64,000 nt of DNA from a virus: IMG/VR virus record IMGVR_UViG_3300045988_130750, positions 1 to 64,000 of that record; one strand, given 5' to 3'. Under the pieces are notes generated by a model. That model was not told the DNA's origin. It saw nothing but the letters and a program-made list of their open reading frames with translations, and did no database searches. Below, piece by piece: positions 33,923-50,112 of the stretch. A program made the translations under genes and the position numbers. The stretch's first letter is position 1. Each line of letters opens with the position of its first letter.

Positions 33923-35767
33923 TTAATAACCAACTACATATTTTTCTTTTATTAGTTCCAATTCATTATTATCATTCAATTCATAATTGAAAGAATGATA
34001 ATTTTCTAATTTTCCATTATTTTTTATGTATAACTCTATGAGTTTTTTACATAATTCAAAATTTTCATTTATGTCTTTTTCCCAAAGATACAAAACTTCA
34101 ATTCCATACTTATTTTTAATATAGGTATGTTTACGTTTATCCTTTATTAAATTTCCCTTAATACCAGAAGTGTTTGATTTATCAGACAAGAGAGGACTAC
34201 AATGCCAAAAATCACCTTGTACCTCGATCATTAAATGATAATCAGATAAATAATGGTCTACTAAATAATATTTACAATCGTATTCACCAATATATTTAAT
34301 ATCCATTTCGTCCAATAAATCATTTATCATTTGTTGTGGCTTTGAAGTTTCAATACTATTCTTCGTACCTTCAAGTGTTACCCATCTGATATAATCCTTA
34401 GTTTTCTTGACTCCCATTCGTCTAGCATATCTTTCTAATTGATCAACAGTTCGACCAGGAAATTTATCAATAAAATCACTTGTTCTATTGTTTGGATATA
34501 ATTGCCGAATCATTTCTCGTTCATTCTCAGAGAATAATTCATCTTTCCTATATATTCCAAATACATTAACAGCTCTATATTGAACAGATGATTCATCTTT
34601 ACCTAATATCTTGGCAATGTCAGAAACAGAATAATCCATATTTCTATAATTATCTTTTAAGAATTGATCTTGTTCTGAAGTCCAACCAGTAACAAATTCT
34701 TCATCTTTCTTAATACCAAGACTATTTATTTTCCCATACAAGCCAGATAAGCTCATATCATCTTTAAAATATTTATTATAGAATTTTTCTGTATTCATAT
34801 ATGGATATTCATTAAATAATAATTCTAATTTATCCTCAGTCCAATATACCTCACCGTTTCTAAAACGATTTGTTACAACTAAACCAAGTTCTGCTTTCTT
34901 TTTATCTATCTGTCCAATTTTTCTATCAGGGAAGAATTTTTCAATCAGAACATCAGCAGAATATGTATTATAATATTTCTTCAATATATCAATTTCTTCA
35001 TCAGTCCATTCTCTCGGTTTTTCATTCCTTAATAAACCAATAGAATTAGCTTTACCAGTAATTTCTGAAATTGTTCGATTGGGAATATATTTATTGTGAA
35101 TTTCTTCTAAAGAAATATCTTGTGAATAGTATTTGTTAAGATATGAGATTTCTTCATCAGTCCAAGAAATGTAATCTTGTTTAAGATTTAATTCACCAGC
35201 TCTGTGTAAAATTGCACTATATGTTTTTGAAAAATAATTTATCAAGTCATCATTCTTTACAGTTCCATAAATTTGCTTTAATAAATTATCTTCCTCAACA
35301 GTCCATACAATTTCTGCTTTATTGAGAGATAATTTTCTCCCTCTTGCTTCAATGGCACGAACAGTTTTATTTGGTAAGAACAAATCATGTAATTCTGTAT
35401 TAGTATAATTTGCAAATTTATCTTTAAGGATTTCGTCTTCTTCAATCGACCATACACAACTGACTTTATGTTTTAAGTGTAAAACGCTTGCTTTACTTGT
35501 TACTTGTGATAATGTCAACTGTGGAAAATAATTCTTTTGAATGTCTTTTACATACATTCCATTTTCATATTTCTCTGTCAGTAGAGCAATATCTTCATCA
35601 GACCATCTAAAAGTTTTTGATTCTAATCCAAGTGTTTTTATTCTTCCTCGTACACTTGGAACTGTTCTTTCGGGAAAATATTTTTCTACAATTTCTGGAT
35701 ATGACATTTTATCATATACCTGTTTTAATATTTCATCTTCTTGAATTGTCCATTTTTTACTTGCCAT
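33923..35767 (-). CDS. array of ~8 Myb/SANT-like repeats fused to a Vsr-like endonuclease domain
   Basis: repeats of W(T/S).EED..L...Y.......I......RT...I..R...LGL about every 55 aa; C-terminus YLVDHYLSDYHLMIEVQGDFWH...KRKHTYIKNKYGIEVLYLWE = Vsr/DUF559-type core. Confidence 0.6.
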   Translation of the reverse strand: MASKKWTIQEDEILKQVYDKMSYPEIVEKYFPERTVPSVRGRIKTLGLESKTFRWSDEDIALLTEKYENGMYVKDIQKNYFPQLTLSQVTSKASVLHLKHKVSCVWSIEEDEILKDKFANYTNTELHDLFLPNKTVRAIEARGRKLSLNKAEIVWTVEEDNLLKQIYGTVKNDDLINYFSKTYSAILHRAGELNLKQDYISWTDEEISYLNKYYSQDISLEEIHNKYIPNRTISEITGKANSIGLLRNEKPREWTDEEIDILKKYYNTYSADVLIEKFFPDRKIGQIDKKKAELGLVVTNRFRNGEVYWTEDKLELLFNEYPYMNTEKFYNKYFKDDMSLSGLYGKINSLGIKKDEEFVTGWTSEQDQFLKDNYRNMDYSVSDIAKILGKDESSVQYRAVNVFGIYRKDELFSENEREMIRQLYPNNRTSDFIDKFPGRTVDQLERYARRMGVKKTKDYIRWVTLEGTKNSIETSKPQQMINDLLDEMDIKYIGEYDCKYYLVDHYLSDYHLMIEVQGDFWHCSPLLSDKSNTSGIKGNLIKDKRKHTYIKNKYGIEVLYLWEKDINENFELCKKLIELYIKNNGKLENYHSFNYELNDNNELELIKEKYVVGY

Positions 35768-35925
35768 AATTATTTCGCTCACTTTCTTGCTCGCTTATTT
35801 ATAAAAAGATGGAAGAGTGGTGCGAGCGATTACCAACTCATATGGCTCATGACTTCCATATGTCTTCCATCCATAATCCAACTACCTGCAATCGAAACAG
35901 TAACGATCCTCTCATAGTTGGCTAT

Positions 35926-36055: not shown

Positions 36056-36604
36056 CTACTCTCTATCACTCATATTTCTAATTGTTGTATATGGAATATC
36101 ATGACTGTCTAATAAATCACAAACATATTTACCTAATCCAGTGTCATCAACGTAAACAGTCATATTACCTTTATTACAGTAAGAAGTAATTGTATATATA
36201 AAAATTGCTTTATCTTTCTTTAAATCAAAACGAAATTTCCTTCTACCAACATATACAAGTGTCACATCAGTTCCATAGTCAATATACATTGTTGTACTAT
36301 CACCAACAGTCCATTTTTTATGATTTCTAATTTCGCCAGAATGATTCTGTTCCCAAACAGCAACTTCGTTATGCCCATCTGTTTCGTATTCAGAATATTC
36401 TAAATGCCAATCATACTCTTTAATTAAAGACAATGTATCTTTTAAAAGTCGAAGAGTATCAATTGTCATTTTATTTCTAAATGCACAATTATCTGGATCA
36501 GCTTCTGCGCTTACATATTTATTGTATCTTTCTGTAAGAGCCTTTGCGTCCTTGATTAACGTGTCAACAGTTTCATCAAAAATATTTTTGTTTCCTTTAT
36601 TCAT
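36056..36604 (-). CDS. hypothetical protein (182 aa)
   Basis: GGAGGAAAA RBS; terminator hairpin overlapping the stop. Confidence 0.6.
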   Translation of the reverse strand: MNKGNKNIFDETVDTLIKDAKALTERYNKYVSAEADPDNCAFRNKMTIDTLRLLKDTLSLIKEYDWHLEYSEYETDGHNEVAVWEQNHSGEIRNHKKWTVGDSTTMYIDYGTDVTLVYVGRRKFRFDLKKDKAIFIYTITSYCNKGNMTVYVDDTGLGKYVCDLLDSHDIPYTTIRNMSDRE

Positions 36605-36665
36605 TTAATTTTCCTCCAAGCAGTAAGTTGCAAGCTATTATTTGTTAATACAATTTTGTACTTAG

Positions 36666-36738
36666 CACACCTTCTACGATTTGAACATAGACCTGACGAT
36701 TTTGGAGATCGTTGCTCTACCAATTAAGCTAAAGGTGT
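36666..36738 (-). tRNA. tRNA-Trp (anticodon CCA)
   Basis: hand-folded cloverleaf: ACACCTT/AAGGTGT acceptor, GCTT/GAGC D-stem, ACGAT-CTCCAAA-ATCGT anticodon arm, CTATG-TTCAAAT-CGTAG T-arm; no encoded CCA. Confidence 0.8.
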
Positions 36739-36834
36739 ATATAACAAAAGAGCCATCTCAACACATGAAATGACTCTTTCTTAACACAGTATTAAATTTA
36801 CCAATCAGTCGCCAAACTGATTATAACTGTATAG

Positions 36835-36914
36835 GGCGGTAGGGTAGTGATGAACTACCAGGGATAAAACCGTATGTGCACCACAGCAAAATCCTTCGAC
36901 ATCAGGCTTACCGC
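36835..36914 (-). tRNA. non-canonical tRNA-like gene (possible GCA/Cys anticodon loop GUGCACA)
   Basis: GCGGTAA/CTACCGC acceptor and GGTAG-TTCATCA-CTACC T-arm, 4 nt from tRNA-Glu; the D region is irregular and the anticodon arm is extended (GGAT/ATCC plus CTGTG/TACGG). Confidence 0.4.
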
Positions 36915-36918
36915 ATAA

Positions 36919-36991
36919 TGACTCTGGCGTGACTTGAACACAGCATTACCACCTTGAAAGGGTGGTGTCCTTACCTTTAGACCACAGAGCC
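36919..36991 (-). tRNA. tRNA-Glu (anticodon TTC)
   Basis: GGCTCTG/CAGAGTC acceptor, GTCT/GGAC D-stem, CCACC-CTTTCAA-GGTGG anticodon arm, T-arm with one C-C mismatch. Confidence 0.75.
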
Positions 36992-37052
36992 ATATTTATT
37001 TTTCATAACCTTTACAGAGTGCTTTGAAAAATATAAAGTCAAGTATCTCTAA

Positions 37053-37124
37053 CTGACTCGGTAGGGATTGAACCTACGACATGCAGATTAACAGTCTGCC
37101 GTTCTACCACTGAACTACGAGCCA
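37053..37124 (-). tRNA. tRNA-Asn (anticodon GTT), copy 1
   Basis: TGGCTCG/CGAGTCA acceptor (G3-U70), GCAGA-CTGTTAA-TCTGC anticodon arm, GTAGG-TTCAATC-CCTAC T-arm. Confidence 0.8.
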
Positions 37125-37129
37125 ATAAA

Positions 37130-37890
37130 ATCAGCATAAAGCACTAACTATCTGATATTGGATTGTACACATCCAGTTATTTAGAATAGGAATACCTAGA
37201 AAATTCCCATTCATACTTACTCATTATTCTTCCCATATTTTCAGTCTTCGGAGCAAAGACCTCTTGACAATGTTTAATGTCTCTTATCCGACAGACCGCC
37301 CAGTAATCATTCGCTATTTCTATCTCAAAAACTCGGATACGAATTTAGCGATAAATCCATACCTTACAAAACTAAATAGAAAAGTTTTCAATCTAAATAT
37401 TTTAAAAAAATAATCCAGCTTCGTTGCCGATCTCATCAATAATGATAGTCTTTTGGACTTAGTATATTTATACAATCTTCCAATGCGGAATTATTTTAAT
37501 CTCATTAACGCAGAGAAGCACGAACACCATTCCATTATAGGTTGGAATAAACCGATTATCCGTGGTGTTGTTAGGATATAACATTATCTCACTAAGTTTC
37601 GTGCGCACTAGAGTCGCTAAACTGTCAGCTCTACCTAGCGAGATAGTAAGACTTACAATCTACAGGACGTAGAAATGCCAAAACATGTTAATTGTCTACT
37701 AAGGCAAGACTTCTCCATAACACCGCCAATGAGCAGTAGCAGTGGGAAGTTTTAGACCATTCCAAGGTGAAATATTTCTGCAAACCGACCATTATATTTA
37801 TGTCGCATATCGGTTAGCGACAGCTCACTTGTAAAAATCTGTCAACGGATTGACAGACCGCCCTCACTTCTTTTGGATGTGAGCAGCTTG
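37130..37890 (-). ncRNA. candidate large structured non-coding RNA co-transcribed with the tRNA array (GOLLD/ROOL-class hypothesis)
   Basis: no credible ORF; promoter-like motif at 37895-37912; many hairpins (CTGTCAA/TTGACAG 37839-37856, TGTCGC/GCGACA 37801-37822, ATTCCA/TGGAAT 37529-37548 nested in AACACCA/TGGTGTT); GGGCGGTCTGTC occurs twice. Confidence 0.4.
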
Positions 37891-37894
37891 TTGT

Positions 37895-37912
37895 ATTTTA
37901 TTATTCTCCAAA
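37895..37912 (-). promoter_or_regulatory. recurrent TGGAGAATA promoter-like motif
   Basis: minus-sense TTTGGAGAATAATAAAAT; 19-nt block TATTTTATTATTCTCCAAA (plus strand) identical to the copy at 49336-49354. Confidence 0.4.
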
Positions 37913-37915
37913 CAC

Positions 37916-37944
37916 TTGTTGCATGTCCTTGTTTCTGCTATAAT
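37916..37944 (+). promoter_or_regulatory. sigma-A-like promoter, divergent from the ncRNA promoter
   Basis: TTGTTG, 17 nt, TATAAT; followed by a TAAGGAGG RBS and a 15-codon ORF (37981-38028); the transcript would be antisense to the tRNA-like element and the int 3' end. Confidence 0.4.
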
Positions 37945-38035
37945 ATTCTTCTCCCTATATGGACTAAGGAGGAATTGCCCATGAAAGCAGTTTTGAATCT
38001 GTCCCGTCCAACTGAAATAAGCAGCTAAAAGGACA

Positions 38036-38113
38036 TGTAATAAAGCGGAATCGAAACCGCTTAAAGTGTGTATCCGTGTTAAGAAAGATCAAGTTGGTAA
38101 CTTGCTTTGTTAC
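38036..38113 (-). other. tRNA-like element next to the integrase stop (attP core candidate / pseudo-tRNA)
   Basis: GTAACAA/TTATTAC acceptor (1 mismatch), perfect CAAG-TTACCAA-CTTG D-arm, AGCGG-TTTCGATT-CCGCT T-arm, but a 14-nt anticodon loop. Confidence 0.35.
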
Positions 38114-38236
38114 ATAATAGGCGTAGTAACAATGCCACAACGGAGGTTGGAAAATAAATTCGACATGGGACGACCTCACCAATCGTCTCATTTGAAGTAT
38201 ATGTTTGAGGATTTATCAAGGGTTAGATGAAAGCTT

Positions 38237-39262
38237 CTAAAATCCAAACATGGAATTTATAGTATCTTCCGAATGATCCTTCAAGTATCCCTGTGTGGTA
38301 CTCGGATCTGAATGATGGGCAAATACTTGAACTTGTTCTAATGGAAACTTTTTAGGATTTCCATTCTCATCAAGTAATCGCATATCTGTTCCTTGTGAAA
38401 GACACTCTAACCTAGAATGGCGCATCGTATGTGTAAATATATTACATGGCTCGCCACGCACTTCAGAAAGTATTTTAGAAATACTTACAATTCTGTCGTA
38501 GAGTACACTAGAATCAGCAATAGGTTGTTTGTGATCACCAGAACCTTTAATCCATAATGAATCAATATCATCGTCTCCACGCCATTCTAAATATTTTCTA
38601 ATCAATTCTTTAGTATCATCTAAATATACAAGAGGAAACTTCTTACCTCGTTTACCAATAACAACATTCGTTTTATTTCCATCCAATAATCCATGTTTTT
38701 GTATCTGAAACAACTCGTTTTTTCTGCCAGCAGAATCAAAACCTATGCTCCACAATACGGCTAGTTGCCACTTTTCTTGTGATACTAAAATATCACGAAC
38801 TTTAATAAATTCATCATATGTAAAGAAAAAATCATCATCATCGTCTTTTACACGAGATTTTGGAATACCACGAACTTTTTTGGCATAATTGACCTCATAT
38901 TCATAGTCATCATCATCTTCACAGAATGTAAGCAAACTGTTAATAGAACTTTTAAGTCTATTTGTTCTTGCTGCTGACATTTCACATTCTTCTGTAAAAT
39001 ACAAACTCAAATTACGAAAATCCTTCTTCTTTAATTCGAGAACACAACGATTGTCTAACTCCTTGAGTATGTAAATCATAATAATCCGTAGATCATTGTG
39101 ATATCCTGATATCGTACCTTTACTCATTTTTCGTTGTTTGTATTCTTGAAGAAAATCATCCATTATTCGTTTATTCTCTTTATTAACTTGTTCCCATAAT
39201 TCAGGAGTATAAAAATTATGATATATTCGACCTCTATTTCCCAAAATCTCACTTCCTTTCAA
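38237..39262 (-). CDS. tyrosine recombinase / phage integrase
   Basis: SAM-like N-domain; catalytic pattern ...SAGRKNEL... HTMRHSRLE ... FAHHSDPSTTQGYL (R, H-x-x-R, H, Y); start codon uncertain (TTG 39262 or 39244). Confidence 0.85.
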   Translation of the reverse strand: MKGSEILGNRGRIYHNFYTPELWEQVNKENKRIMDDFLQEYKQRKMSKGTISGYHNDLRIIMIYILKELDNRCVLELKKKDFRNLSLYFTEECEMSAARTNRLKSSINSLLTFCEDDDDYEYEVNYAKKVRGIPKSRVKDDDDDFFFTYDEFIKVRDILVSQEKWQLAVLWSIGFDSAGRKNELFQIQKHGLLDGNKTNVVIGKRGKKFPLVYLDDTKELIRKYLEWRGDDDIDSLWIKGSGDHKQPIADSSVLYDRIVSISKILSEVRGEPCNIFTHTMRHSRLECLSQGTDMRLLDENGNPKKFPLEQVQVFAHHSDPSTTQGYLKDHSEDTINSMFGF

Positions 39263-39287: not shown

Positions 39288-40466
39288 CTAGATCACTTCT
39301 TGATAGTCAATAACATTTCTTCCCCATTTAATATCATCTTTATATTTCAATTCACCAATTTTTGATACTTTATTCCAATTGATATTATTCTTAATAAAAG
39401 ACTCAATATTTTTTCTAAGTGCAATAGAATCTTCAACTAGAATTTTATGTATGTTTTCTTTAGTTAGATCACAGGGGAAGAGTATATAATAATTTAAATT
39501 GTTTTCTTTTAACATAGATTGTTTTTCGGATAACTTTTGACGATAAATTTCTTTAGAATTGCTACATGTTATTTCTTTGTTAGAAAAGAAATGGTTCTTA
39601 TACGATTCAATAACTCCAGCAATTTCAATATAAATATTTTTACCATTAATATTAATTAAATAATCACAGTTCATATTTTTATTGTAATTTGGAATAAAAG
39701 ATGAATATTTTACATCTCTTTGATAGTCAACGCCATATTTAAGACCAAAATCACGTAAACACTTAGAAAAAAGATATTCAAATTGACTTGTTACATGTTC
39801 GCCGTCTAGAAAATCAAAAGTAATTCCTCTACCTTGTTTCCCAAGATTTATATTTTCTTTTGATAAAATAGTTTGCAAATCGCAATTGTAATACTTCTTA
39901 ATCGTTTTTTGTAATGTATCAGCATTTAGCCAATTATGATTATTGTCAATTTCTGATGTTGTTATAAAATTACGATTATCATTTTTAACATAGACACAAA
40001 TATCAAGTATCATTTTATCTAGTTCATCTTTAGATAAAGATTTATCTATCATTGATTCTTGAACTATTTCTAATCCAAGTTCCTTTTTCATATTATTAAT
40101 TGTTCCCCAATATTTTTTGATTCCTTCTATGGGTGGATGGTAACATCCTCTTCCTCTAAAGTCATCATACATTAAAGGTCTATCTTTTTCTGATTGTAAT
40201 TTGTAAATCAGTTTTATCATTTTATTCTTTGATGGTGTTTTACCTTTTGCTACAAAACCACACCAATCAACAAAATCAGCCCAAGTTTTAACTGATTCAT
40301 CTGGACAATTATTTATATACCATCTACCATCAGGTAAGTTAAAAGGCTCTTTCCGCAATAAATCATATTTTATTGGTTTGCCTAATTCTTCACTTTTTTG
40401 AACATATTCCCTTACATAATGGTCGTAATCTTCGATATTAAATTCTCTCTGTTTTGTACTTCCCAT
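39288..40466 (-). CDS. homing-endonuclease-like protein (Vsr/DUF559-type core, divergent)
   Basis: start moved to ATG 40466 (AGGTG RBS); C-terminal half NCDYLININGKNIYIEIAGV... resembles the hhhE-x-x-G core of the other three paralogues. Confidence 0.45.
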   Translation of the reverse strand: MGSTKQREFNIEDYDHYVREYVQKSEELGKPIKYDLLRKEPFNLPDGRWYINNCPDESVKTWADFVDWCGFVAKGKTPSKNKMIKLIYKLQSEKDRPLMYDDFRGRGCYHPPIEGIKKYWGTINNMKKELGLEIVQESMIDKSLSKDELDKMILDICVYVKNDNRNFITTSEIDNNHNWLNADTLQKTIKKYYNCDLQTILSKENINLGKQGRGITFDFLDGEHVTSQFEYLFSKCLRDFGLKYGVDYQRDVKYSSFIPNYNKNMNCDYLININGKNIYIEIAGVIESYKNHFFSNKEITCSNSKEIYRQKLSEKQSMLKENNLNYYILFPCDLTKENIHKILVEDSIALRKNIESFIKNNINWNKVSKIGELKYKDDIKWGRNVIDYQEVI

Positions 40467-40645
40467 ATTTTTCACCTATGCCTTTCCCTATGCCAACAAC
40501 TAAAAATAGAACAGTAGAAGAGAGGCATAGGTTCTCATATACTTGGTAGCTACTCCAAGTACCTACTGTTCCATAAATCCTCCAACCAGCTATGACACCA
40601 ATCAGAAGCACATATATTTGTTCTCTATTTGTCGCACGACAAATA

Positions 40646-40680
40646 TCAAAAACTTGTTCATATCACATTACTTGAACAAG
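40646..40680 (-). terminator. rho-independent terminator after tRNA-Asn copy 2
   Basis: minus-sense CTTGTTCA...TGAACAAG 8-bp stem followed by TTTTTG. Confidence 0.55.
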
Positions 40681-40685
40681 TTAAG

Positions 40686-40757
40686 CTGGCTCGGTAGGGA
40701 TCGAACCTACGACATCCTGATTAACAGTCAGGCGTTCTACCTCTGAACTACGAGTCA
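40686..40757 (-). tRNA. tRNA-Asn (anticodon GTT), copy 2
   Basis: TGACTCG/CGAGCCA acceptor (A3xC70 mismatch), CCTGA-CTGTTAA-TCAGG anticodon arm with compensated changes relative to copy 1, GTAGG-TTCGATC-CCTAC T-arm. Confidence 0.7.
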
Positions 40758-43535: not shown

Positions 43536-43720
43536 GTGAACTGCCCATTGGCTTTAGACAATGGACTTCTTGCTTCATCGTCCTCGTAACCTACTAACTC
43601 CACAAGCGTAAATTCCGATAGTTCCTACCGTACTAAATATCCGTTATGCTGCTTCCAACAGCCTTAATCCTTCATTGAGAATGTTCTTTGCAGCGTTTAT
43701 ATCTCTGTCATGCTTCGTCC
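43536..43720 (-). ncRNA. omega (right-end) guide RNA scaffold of TnpB; limits approximate
   Basis: in known TnpB systems the scaffold spans the tnpB 3' end to the right end; structured 110 nt after the stop; the guide would be read from the flank TATAAAGGGTTTTATATTGAC. Confidence 0.5.
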
Positions 43721-44753
43721 CACACTTAGGACAAATCCATTCTCTTACAGATAAATCTTTGGTATTCTTATTGACATATCCACAAATATTACAAAGCTGA
43801 CTAGACGGAACATATCTGCCAATTTTGATATATGTACGCCCATTCCATTCAGCCTTATATGTGAGCTGCCTTGTCAATTCATACCATCCACAATCTGTAA
43901 TTGCTTTAGCAAGATTATGATTCTTTACCATATTAGATACTGCTAAATCCTCACTAACTATCACTTGGTTTTCGCTGATAAGCCGATGTGAAATCTTATG
44001 CAGATTATCAATTCTAGTATTGCGAATCTTTTCGTGCACTCTTGCAAGTTTTATTCTTTGCTTTTGATAATTCTTACTACCTTTTGTTTTATGAGATAAT
44101 TTACGCTGTTCTTTTGCAAGTTTGTTCTCATATTTTTTTATAGTCCGAATATTATTAAATTTTTCTCCATCAGAAGTGATAAGTAAATCCTTAATACCTA
44201 AATCAATACCGACTATACTGCTTGTTTCTGGAAGAACTTCATGGTCAGTTTTGACCAATACAGATACAAAATACTTCCCACTTGGAACTTGTGAAATGGT
44301 GGCTGATTTTATTTTACCGACAAACTCTCTATGAACTTTTGCCTTGACCCATTTCAGTTTTGGAAGTTTGATTCTGTTATTCTCAAAAGAAACTTCGATA
44401 TTTCCATTTGTGAAGTTTGTCTTATAAGACTTTTTATTGTCTCGCTTGCTCTTAAATTTCGGATAACCTGCATGTTCTTTGAAAAATTTCTGATACGCTG
44501 AATCCATGTTAATGACTGCATTATCTAACGCAAATTTATCTACTTCTTTTAACCATAAATATTCGGTTTTCAGAGTCTTGTTCTTCCAGTTATTACAATC
44601 AATCTTACTTAAAGATTCTTTTTTGGTTTCATAAAGATTCCTCCTATATGCAAGCGTCTGATTATATACAAATCTACAACAACCAAAAGTTTTCTGAATC
44701 TGAATTTCTTGCTCTTTGTTTGGATATAGTCTGTATTTATAGGCTTTAAGCAT
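43644..44753 (-). CDS. tnpB: TnpB RNA-guided nuclease (OrfB_IS605)
   Basis: MLKAYKYRLYPNKEQ...FGCCRFVYNQ; RuvC motifs GIDLGIKD, VSEDL, HDRDINAAKNI; zinc finger CNICG...CPKCG. Confidence 0.95.
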   Translation of the reverse strand: MLKAYKYRLYPNKEQEIQIQKTFGCCRFVYNQTLAYRRNLYETKKESLSKIDCNNWKNKTLKTEYLWLKEVDKFALDNAVINMDSAYQKFFKEHAGYPKFKSKRDNKKSYKTNFTNGNIEVSFENNRIKLPKLKWVKAKVHREFVGKIKSATISQVPSGKYFVSVLVKTDHEVLPETSSIVGIDLGIKDLLITSDGEKFNNIRTIKKYENKLAKEQRKLSHKTKGSKNYQKQRIKLARVHEKIRNTRIDNLHKISHRLISENQVIVSEDLAVSNMVKNHNLAKAITDCGWYELTRQLTYKAEWNGRTYIKIGRYVPSSQLCNICGYVNKNTKDLSVREWICPKCGTKHDRDINAAKNILNEGLRLLEAA

Positions 44754-45251: not shown

Positions 45252-45269
45252 ATTTTATTATTCTCTGTT
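45252..45269 (-). promoter_or_regulatory. recurrent GAGAATA promoter-like motif upstream of tRNA-Lys
   Basis: minus-sense AACAGAGAATAATAAAAT about 100 nt upstream of the tRNA. Confidence 0.35.
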
Positions 45270-49253: not shown

Positions 49254-49332
49254 ATTTTAATAATTCTCCTTTAGTTTTTAAAATAATTTTGTTCATTGCA
49301 ATCAACTCCTTTGAGTGCTGCGTTATTAGTTC

Positions 49333-50112
49333 CTATATTTTATTATTCTCCAAAAGCTCTATCTGTTTTTTTATTTCTTTATCTGGACAATATTCTTTAT
49401 CAATTCTTTGACCGTGTTCATCATGAATAAAATGTCTATAATCAGCAAATACCTTTGGAGTAGTAGTGTATTTTTCTTTGCCATCCTTAATATATTTTTC
49501 TCTCTTCATAGGCTGATATTTTACAATTTTGAGTGCTTCTAAAATGTTAATTATGCGACTAATATATCTTTCAGAAAGTCCAATATCTTCTGAAATAGTC
49601 TTAAAATATCTATAACAACATAGTGGTTTTCTATCCATTCGATTCAAATTGACACGAATATAAGAGAGTACAAGTAGAATATAAGCTGATGATATTCTTG
49701 CAGTATCAATCTCTTTATCCTTCAATTCTTCTTTGAAATTTAATATTGCATCCAACTCATCAAAATAAATAATTCCAAACTTATCAGGTACATCGAATTT
49801 TTTTATATTAAGTTTTACTTGCTGATATTTGACCGAATTGGTCTTTTCTTTTAGACATTTCTCAAAATCTGGACACGATTCAAAGTATTCATAATGAGAG
49901 AGAAGTGATAGAACTTCATAATATTTCTGATTTATCTTTCCATCTCTGTAGTTAGGTTTCAGTTTAGACCAATGACAAAGTTCTGTTGTAGAAAATGCCA
50001 CTGTGTCATCAAGTGAACGCCTTGCACAAAGATATGAGAAGATTATTACGCGTTTAGATGAGAGATCCTTATCATAAATGATTTCTCGTGGAATTTTTAC
50101 ATAGTTTGGCAA
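49333..50112 (-). CDS. hypothetical protein, possible replication-organiser-type wHTH
   Basis: TTG start with GTGAGGTG RBS; N-terminus YVKIPREIIYDKDLSSKRVIIFSYL resembles phage replisome-organiser N-termini (weak). Confidence 0.35.
   Translation of the reverse strand: MPNYVKIPREIIYDKDLSSKRVIIFSYLCARRSLDDTVAFSTTELCHWSKLKPNYRDGKINQKYYEVLSLLSHYEYFESCPDFEKCLKEKTNSVKYQQVKLNIKKFDVPDKFGIIYFDELDAILNFKEELKDKEIDTARISSAYILLVLSYIRVNLNRMDRKPLCCYRYFKTISEDIGLSERYISRIINILEALKIVKYQPMKREKYIKDGKEKYTTTPKVFADYRHFIHDEHGQRIDKEYCPDKEIKKQIELLENNKI
49337..49354 (-). promoter_or_regulatory. recurrent TGGAGAATA promoter-like motif
   Basis: minus-sense TTTGGAGAATAATAAAAT, overlapping the last codons of 49333-50112. Confidence 0.4.

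Follow-up and report, generated by a model that had tools for sequence, protein, structure and literature searches.

What occupies the long stretch without a credible open reading frame (ORF) that lies ahead of the transfer RNA (tRNA) genes of a large phage? The question is raised by a 64,000-nucleotide (nt) stretch of the IMG/VR record IMGVR_UViG_3300045988_130750, here called the window, in which the element under study (37126–37912, minus strand) runs from a promoter-like motif to tRNA-Asn. A preliminary description had proposed that it encodes one large ornate RNA, perhaps a member or relative of the GOLLD and ROOL classes. The element is conserved, has defined boundaries, pairs in a strand-specific manner, is modular, lacks coding potential and belongs to no known RNA family. 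It is best explained, with a probability of about one half, as a non-coding RNA unit, conserved and modular, at the head of a phage tRNA operon, serving as a structured leader and small-RNA unit. The source phage is large, siphovirus-like and of Firmicutes, its tape-measure protein sharing ~30% identity with its counterparts in Brevibacillus and Enterocloster phages.

Conservation and boundaries of the element

The absence of any credible ORF, asserted in the preliminary description, was borne out: the longest ORF in any frame of 37126–37912 has 51 amino acids, and the eight small ORFs of this region gave no Pfam or PHROGs match at E≤0.1. A search of the gap by tblastn with every ORF of ≥60 amino acids from related loci returned noise only, and the conserved blocks contain frame-breaking 1-nt indels. 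The ORF-free gap as a whole (37126–38236) is larger than the element, its upstream third being a separate plus-strand unit described below. The element had also been characterised as less AT-rich than its flanks, which holds for ~37450–37900 (G+C 0.39–0.43) and fails for 37150–37450 (G+C 0.31–0.33, like the coding flanks).

Homologues were collected from loci of the downstream ORF (36056–36604) and by exact-pattern scans from two conserved blocks, the scans adding 141 viral loci and 15 human-gut metagenome contigs. Pieces of 37126–~37920 were found in 135/189 loci, on uncultured phage contigs from IMG/VR and human-gut metagenomes. Every homologue lies on the tRNA strand, upstream of the tRNA array, although the first tRNA that follows varies between relatives (Gln, Met, Asp, Asn or Tyr). 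Placement next to the tRNA array was seen in 38 unique relatives; in the window, the element ends 4–5 nt before tRNA-Asn (37052–37125, minus strand), which belongs to an array at 36665–37125 on the same strand comprising tRNA-Asn(GUU), tRNA-Glu(UUC) and tRNA-Trp(CCA), all called by ARAGORN and Rfam. Two scans of 185,579 representative bacterial and archaeal genomes found no similar sequence, and in BLAST searches of cultured phages (INPHARED) and plasmids (PLSDB) only tRNA was matched. As far as these searches reach, the element occurs only in one clade of large Firmicutes phages, uncultured and from the human gut. Three human-gut metagenome contigs of 257–331 kb (L190, L195 and L197 among our labelled loci) carry module E, one of the modules defined below; the viral contigs measure 80–200 kb, and the longer ones could be larger phages or integrated copies, in which case the host might be read from them.

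Both edges of the element proved to be where the preliminary description had set them. At the 5′ side, coverage upstream of 37925 drops from ~60 loci to 3, so that the conserved unit ends at the proposed 5′ end, just downstream of the promoter-like motif. Conservation starts 2–8 nt past the motif, at A(C/U)AAGCUGC, and four unrelated upstream contexts join the conserved sequence there; this common junction identifies A(C/U)AAGCUGC as a real 5′ boundary. The 3′ edge adjoins tRNA-Asn.

Modular architecture

Read along the minus strand, the element comprises at least eight modules, here A (37893–37828), B (37832–37712), C (37712–37640), D (37640–37585), E (37585–37495), F (37499–37294), G (37296–37225) and H (37200–37126). 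The 39 unique copies that start with module A fall into 16 architectures, with 102 to 877 nt separating this module from the first tRNA. A, B and C were nearly always present in these copies and E was found in 35/39, while D, F, G and H varied. The modules are not bound to one another: C–E without A–B, A–B without E, and A alone all occur, C–E is also found behind another 5′ module, and profile searches located C, E and H downstream of a recombinase gene in locus L002.

Base pairing in minus-strand RNA

The named helices were counted on alignments of unique copies, with 500 shuffles and partners slid by 1–3 columns as controls. Pairing was nearly complete: 98.9% of cells were paired in modules A+B (38 sequences, three pairs changed on both sides), 99.5% in module E (29 sequences, 5/15 pairs changed on both sides), 96.4% in module G (33 sequences, 6/10 pairs) and 97.6% in module H (38 sequences, 6/11 pairs). 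In none of these four alignments was the covariation score reached by any of the 500 shuffles, and sliding the partners by 1–3 columns dropped pairing to 14–58%. Covariation among relatives, which the preliminary description had put forward as one check on its proposal, came out in favour of conserved helices. Together with the nucleotide conservation and the lack of any protein signal, these compensatory changes show that the element is non-coding and conserved, and is no decayed gene.

Pairing was also specific to one strand. The supported helices, about ten local hairpins, contained ~332 G–U cells against ~39 unpaired cells. Since a G–U pair is an A–C mismatch on the plus strand, the pairing acts in minus-strand RNA, and not in duplex DNA or plus-strand RNA. 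By alifold energy, too, modules A, B, G and H fold more stably in the sense of the minus strand.

No helix between modules showed a double change when all module pairs were searched for antiparallel runs kept in ≥93% of sequences. The best candidates, a 10-bp complementarity between B and E (37732–37723 with 37510–37501) and an invariant pseudoknot stem in module B, had no double change and are of a length expected by chance. That the supported helices are all local, and that modules are gained and lost independently, argues against a global fold of the GOLLD or ROOL kind, within the power that the low diversity of the alignments allows.

Structure of the individual modules

Most of the helices named in the preliminary description were recovered, and compensatory changes among relatives support four of them: CUCAC/GUGAG, CUGUCAA/UUGACAG, UGUCGC/GCGACA and the nested AACACCA/AUUCCA pair. 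CTGTCAA/TTGACAG (37839–37856) and TGTCGC/GCGACA (37801–37822) lie exactly where they had been placed, and ATTCCA/TGGAAT is nested inside its outer helix as described. Two others exist with coordinates that had been given one base off, CTCAC/GTGAG being found at 37863–37883 and the TGGTGTT arm of AACACCA/TGGTGTT at 37523–37529. GTAAG/CTTAC cannot form a hairpin because its loop would be only 1 nt.

Module A consists of the hairpin CUCAC/GUGAG (37883–37863) and a terminator-like hairpin (37859–37831), GGUCUGUCAA/UUGACAGAUU, with a 10-bp stem and a 4-nt loop followed by U5. This second hairpin has the layout of an intrinsic terminator, the stem-loop passing directly into UUUUU, and is conserved with compensatory changes; its helix was 99.7% paired, with G–U, G–C and A–U exchanges and one AU-to-GC double change. 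The alifold energy of module A was −14.3 in the sense and −3.0 in the antisense orientation. Its predicted layout resembles that of a ~60-nt small RNA or an attenuator.

Module B carries the hairpins UGUCGC/GCGACA (37822–37801), GGAA/UUCC (37763–37745) and CACUGC/GCGGUG (37744–37721). Within UGUCGC/GCGACA, the pair at alignment positions 115–128 changed from A–U (26 sequences) to G–C (10 sequences), while the other helices of the module were 99–100% paired, with one-sided changes to G–U only. A possible H-type pseudoknot (AACCGAU, 37815–37809, with GUCGGUU, 37789–37783) is a candidate only, because its stem never varies among relatives.

Module C, the most widely shared, has the conserved form CUUGGCAUUU-[hairpin]-AUUGUAAGUCCUAC. 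Its hairpin reads AUUUCUAC-GUCCU-GUAGAU in the window (37676–37658), and GCUAU-UCAU-GUAGC with flanking insertions in most relatives. Module D, present in some relatives only, contains the hairpin UAGAG/CUCUA (37633–37609); its structure signal was weak in an alignment of 11 unique copies. In module E, the outer helix ACACCA/UGGUGU (37568–37563 with 37529–37524) encloses UUCCA/UGGAA (37547–37530), and its 3′ part adds a hairpin, CGUG/UGCG (37522–37509), followed by the invariant UUAAUGAGA.

Module F has a terminator-like hairpin followed by U7 (37430–37405) and, at its 3′ end, the second copy of GGGCGGUCUGUC; it showed little consensus structure, and its 5′ half (F1) is common to L062 only. 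The 12-mer GGGCGGTCTGTC, reported in the preliminary description as repeated, has exactly two copies in the window (37290–37301 and 37852–37863), where none is expected. Module G pairs UGUC/GACA around the conserved loop GGAUAAGA (37293–37278) and GGUCUU/AAGACU (37261–37243), its hairpins being followed by a second GGAGAAUA-like motif, GAAGAATAAT (37232–37223). Module H ends the element with two hairpins, UGGAU/AUCCA with loop GUGUACA (37175–37159) and AUCAGA/GCUGAU (37156–37130), the latter ending 4–5 nt before tRNA-Asn.

Folding energy and known RNA families

Folding energy was a poor guide to this region. Four sub-segments, compared with 100 dinucleotide shuffles, were unexceptional on either strand (z −0.5 to −1.7), the sole exceptional stretch being module A, the first 66 nt of the element, which has a minimum free energy of −20.6 kcal/mol (z = −3.9, 0/200 shuffles as stable). 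A plus-strand reading suggested by an initial z of −4.0 (20 shuffles) was dropped in the light of the 100-shuffle tests and the G–U asymmetry. The evidence for function lies in the helices that relatives share with compensatory changes, and not in folding energy.

Covariance-model searches (cmscan of 36600–38400, both strands, E≤10, permissive filters) gave no match to GOLLD (RF01998) or ROOL (RF03087), and HEARO, OLE, raiA, group I and II introns and other large Rfam RNAs were absent among the nine matches at E≤10; the membership of GOLLD or ROOL entertained in the preliminary description is therefore not upheld, nor is that of HEARO. At gathering score, GOLLD was found neither in the window nor in 27 related loci, and ROOL was missing from the relatives too. 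Neither the tRNA model (RF00005, E≤10) nor ARAGORN gave a match inside 37130–37890; only the three annotated tRNAs matched. The sole Rfam matches at gathering score in the related loci were tRNAs, one FuFi-1 and two drum RNAs. The element belongs to no catalogued RNA family. Thousands of candidate viral RNAs without names have been predicted from IMG/VR (PMC10690425), and single modules could be included there. It is of a kind known in outline, that of phage tRNA-island RNAs, but represents no described family and is built of exchangeable modules.

A proposed structured leader and small-RNA unit

The motif TTTGGAGAATAATAAAAT is present on the minus strand at 37895–37912, where it had been reported, and offers a weak sigma-70-type match (AGGACA-18-AATAAT); a promoter role for it, and transcription of the minus strand, may be inferred. 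It recurs on the minus strand at 45252–45266, ~97 nt upstream of tRNA-Lys.

On the explanation that we favour, the minus strand would be transcribed from about 37893 towards tRNA-Asn, and the element co-transcribed with the tRNAs. The RNA would form a string of independently folding hairpin modules, A to H, with no global fold, and recombination among related phages would have shuffled, inserted and deleted these modules. Module A, in which a 5′ hairpin precedes a leaky hairpin of terminator-like form, might work as an attenuating leader or as a small RNA; the hairpins that follow it, down to the last one before the tRNA, might serve as RNA-level signals for processing, stability or protein binding; and the precursor would be cut into tRNAs and several small stable RNAs. 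The tRNA cluster of phage T4 yields two stable non-tRNA species, the species 1 and 2 RNAs. Like the products envisaged here, these are small structured RNAs that are encoded in a phage tRNA cluster or ahead of it, on the strand of the tRNAs, and that presumably arise from a common precursor. The element differs in being modular and of much greater length (up to 877 nt), and the two are unrelated in sequence.

Several points weigh against this explanation. The promoter consensus match is weak (9/12), an identical 19-mer lies inside the coding 3′ end of the ORF at 49333–50112 (49336–49354, minus strand), and near-copies of the motif are ribosome-binding regions (e.g. 49260–49269). The terminator-like hairpins at 37859–37831 and 37430–37405 could end transcription before the tRNAs, which the GGAGAAUA-like motif at 37232–37223 could provide with a promoter of their own. 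Diversity among the relatives is low (87–91% mean column identity), so that the test for long-range pairing was limited in power, and since the sequences are closely related, several of the compensatory changes are single inherited events. Finally, the conserved loops GGAUAAGA, GUGUACA, UCUAAAAC and GCUCAUUGG point to specific partners, and a role in processing or stability leaves them unexplained.

The GGAGAAUA-like motif and the terminator-like site in module F could also split the region into two units. The GGAGAAUA motif was enriched only ~1.7-fold upstream of tRNAs, with a peak at 100–119 nt that reflects the conserved module context; the enrichment is not independent of this context.

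Alternative explanations

The element might instead encode a single large, ornate RNA that founds a new class with functional kinship to GOLLD and ROOL, with a conserved 5′ core of A, B, C and E, a variable 3′ region, and a global fold or oligomeric state. GOLLD and ROOL are long non-coding RNA loci of Firmicutes phages and prophages, often beside tRNA islands (PMC12286853, PMC5737381), and the element resembles them in its phage locus beside tRNA genes and in its comparable size of 0.5–0.8 kb. The tRNA-island context, the presence of A, B and C in nearly all A-starting copies and of E in 35/39, the possible pseudoknot in module B, the conservation of several loops in sequence, and the 10-bp complementarity of the conserved module B loop (37732–37723) to the invariant 3′ end of E (37510–37501) would all suit such an RNA. 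It shows, however, no multistem junctions or supported pseudoknots and matches no large-RNA Rfam model at E≤10, and whereas GOLLD conserves its 3′ domain, the conserved part of the element is its 5′ end. The helices supported by covariation are all local hairpins, complementarities of 8–10 bp are expected by chance and none between modules shows a double change, C–E without A–B, A–B without E and A alone are all found, and shuffled sequences match the region in folding energy. The single large RNA of the preliminary description is accordingly unlikely, its modules coming and going independently.

A second alternative takes the element as an anti-defence RNA array, in which module C would be a solitary mimic of a Cas12a (type V-A) repeat, of the Racr or Cracr kind: a 19-nt handle, AUUUCUAC-GUCCU-GUAGAU, would load host Cas12a, and UGUAAGUC(C/U)UAC would be a short guide. 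An exact ATTTCTAC-N5-GTAGAT is indeed present on the presumed transcribed strand at 37676–37658, against 0.03 expected per window, and the handle pattern AAUUUCUAC-loop-GUAGAU is found in ATTTCTACGTCCTGTAGAT at the same minus-strand position, identical at the specified positions to the 3′ handle of V-A repeats. Canonical V-A repeats and the validated RacrVA1–3 share the ending AATTTCTACTGTTGTAGAT (PMC10651486), and there is a validated gut-phage precedent in CracrVA1, a 19-nt handle with a 21-nt guide from an uncultured phage of gut Ruminococcus (bioRxiv 10.1101/2024.10.29.618823). All variants agree in the 11–12 nt that follow the hairpin (UGUAAGUCCUAC) and diverge by architecture farther on, as would suit a seed.

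The resemblance to Racr and Cracr RNAs is thus that of a solitary repeat-like hairpin in a virus genome, here a Cas12a 19-nt handle with a conserved short stretch; the differences are that the handle form occurs in a minority of relatives, without a terminator, and inside a long multi-module RNA. The resemblance was spotted after the fact. The form AUUUCUAC-GUC(C/U)U-GUAGAU is carried by the window, the near-identical L062/L103, L155, L160 and L205, but the exact handle form is found in only four viral contigs, L167 and the L076 group having near-forms, and in most relatives an extra base pair and flanking bases shift the handle register. No hairpin with a U-run follows within ~200 nt downstream of 37658, whereas the CracrVA1 layout includes a Rho-independent terminator. 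Searching viral contigs for Cas12a targets (TTTN plus the 11-nt seed) gave >120 unrelated matches, a chance level for 14 specified bases, and within related loci the seed matched only the element itself. A Cas12a mimic in module C is on balance improbable. So is a wider form of the proposal, in which an evolving handle mimic with an 11–12-nt seed would hijack or titrate host Cas12a, the remaining hairpins with conserved loops would act as decoys for further host nucleases or for defence proteins that bind RNA, and host enzymes would free them all from the tRNA precursor.

It is very unlikely that the element acts as DNA, whether as a replication origin, a recombination hotspot or attachment region, or a protein-binding array whose palindromic sites account for the hairpin symmetry. 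Such a role could be read into the absence of ORFs, the adjoining tyrosine-recombinase gene, the repeated 12-mer, and module borders that behave like recombination junctions. The helices, however, tolerate G–U and not A–C (332 vs 39 cells), as fits RNA of one strand, and their arms change while pairing stays, so that no fixed binding-site sequence is kept; there are no iterons, a recombinase lies near the element in only a minority of the loci that carry it, and the element is missing from most loci that hold the recombinase. Evolutionary debris, that is a functionless decayed protein gene or degenerate tRNA genes, is disfavoured as the least probable reading, since, for all that phage tRNA regions turn over fast and partial tRNA-model matches occur in gaps of L022, L036 and L043, nucleotide conservation of 87–91% over many contigs comes with compensatory changes, no tRNA-model match at E≤10 lies inside 37130–37890, and there is no protein similarity.

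Genomic neighbourhood

The plus-strand unit in the ORF-free gap (37936–38192) is distinct from the minus-strand element and is shared only with L062/L103 and L084. It has an extended −10 sequence, TGcTATAAT (37936–37944), a strong ribosome-binding site, AAGGAGG, with a 15-codon ORF, MKAVLNLSRPTEISS (37981–38028), and a FuFi-1-like RNA (Rfam RF02986, 38017–38192) with a 3′ hairpin and UUU. The last aligned over the full length of the model with 37.9 bits against a gathering score of 59.6 (E = 7.5e-7 in a 401-nt search). Its alignment takes in the principal helices of FuFi-1 together with the terminator hairpin at the 3′ end, but this neighbouring RNA scores below the gathering threshold, and it lies outside the element on the opposite strand. 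A bona fide FuFi-1 (64.9 bits) is found inside the tRNA array of L006 (7086–7334, minus strand), and drum RNAs occur in L030 (5706–5809, plus strand, 53.4 bits) and L050 (533–629, plus strand, 44.7 bits). Orphan structured RNAs abound in the tRNA regions of these related phages. Within the tRNA array of the window, the 179-nt spacer between tRNA-Glu and tRNA-Trp (36739–36917, minus strand) is without a match in Rfam and could be a further small module with structure; it is partly conserved in relatives, 36841–36738 matching L002, L056 and L062.

Upstream of the gap lies a divergent tyrosine recombinase (38237–39262, minus strand) that matches PHROG integrase families and falls below the Pfam cutoff. 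It retrieved 54 IMG/VR loci, in which nucleotide similarity ends exactly at its stop codon (~50 contigs), and in L062 the downstream sequence is present without the recombinase gene; taken together, these observations indicate that the recombinase behaves as a mobile cassette in tRNA regions. Because similarity stops at the stop codon, the recombinase loci are uninformative about the element. An idea that the element is an integron-like or attC cassette was dropped, as element and recombinase rarely co-occur. Many recombinase loci have ORF-free gaps of ~1 kb of their own before tRNAs or genes, 0–1000 nt after the recombinase stop (L002, L017/L025, L020, L022/L023/L036/L043, L030/L041/L045/L049 and L042). 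Some contain partial tRNA-model matches, and all are unrelated to the gap of the window except that of L002 (C, E and H); they may represent further families of the same kind.

A second tRNA-Asn(GUU) (40685–40757, minus strand) is 88% identical to the first (37052–37130), including a few 5′ flank bases, and is followed by a strong terminator-like hairpin (~40655–40690). Homing-endonuclease-like ORFs flank the tRNA region (39288–40475 and 33923–35782, both minus strand), of which one contains an HNH-associated repeat and the other combines Myb/GcrA-like repeats with a PHROG HNH endonuclease match; this fits a hotspot of mobile genes. A full-length ORF of the TnpB/IS605 OrfB type (OrfB_IS605, Cas12f1-like TNB and HTH_OrfB_IS605) is located at 43644–44753 on the minus strand.

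Implications

Phage tRNA islands are already known for enigmatic RNAs, among them GOLLD, ROOL, FuFi-1 and drum, and the present locus extends the list by a family that Rfam does not contain. Its exchangeable hairpins with conserved loops provide natural presence/absence variants that are ready for genetic tests. Should the units prove to be processing signals, the locus would reveal how long tRNA precursors are organised in phages; should one or more of them be decoys, as the Cas12a-handle form might be, tRNA operons would be a place to seek RNA-based anti-defence.

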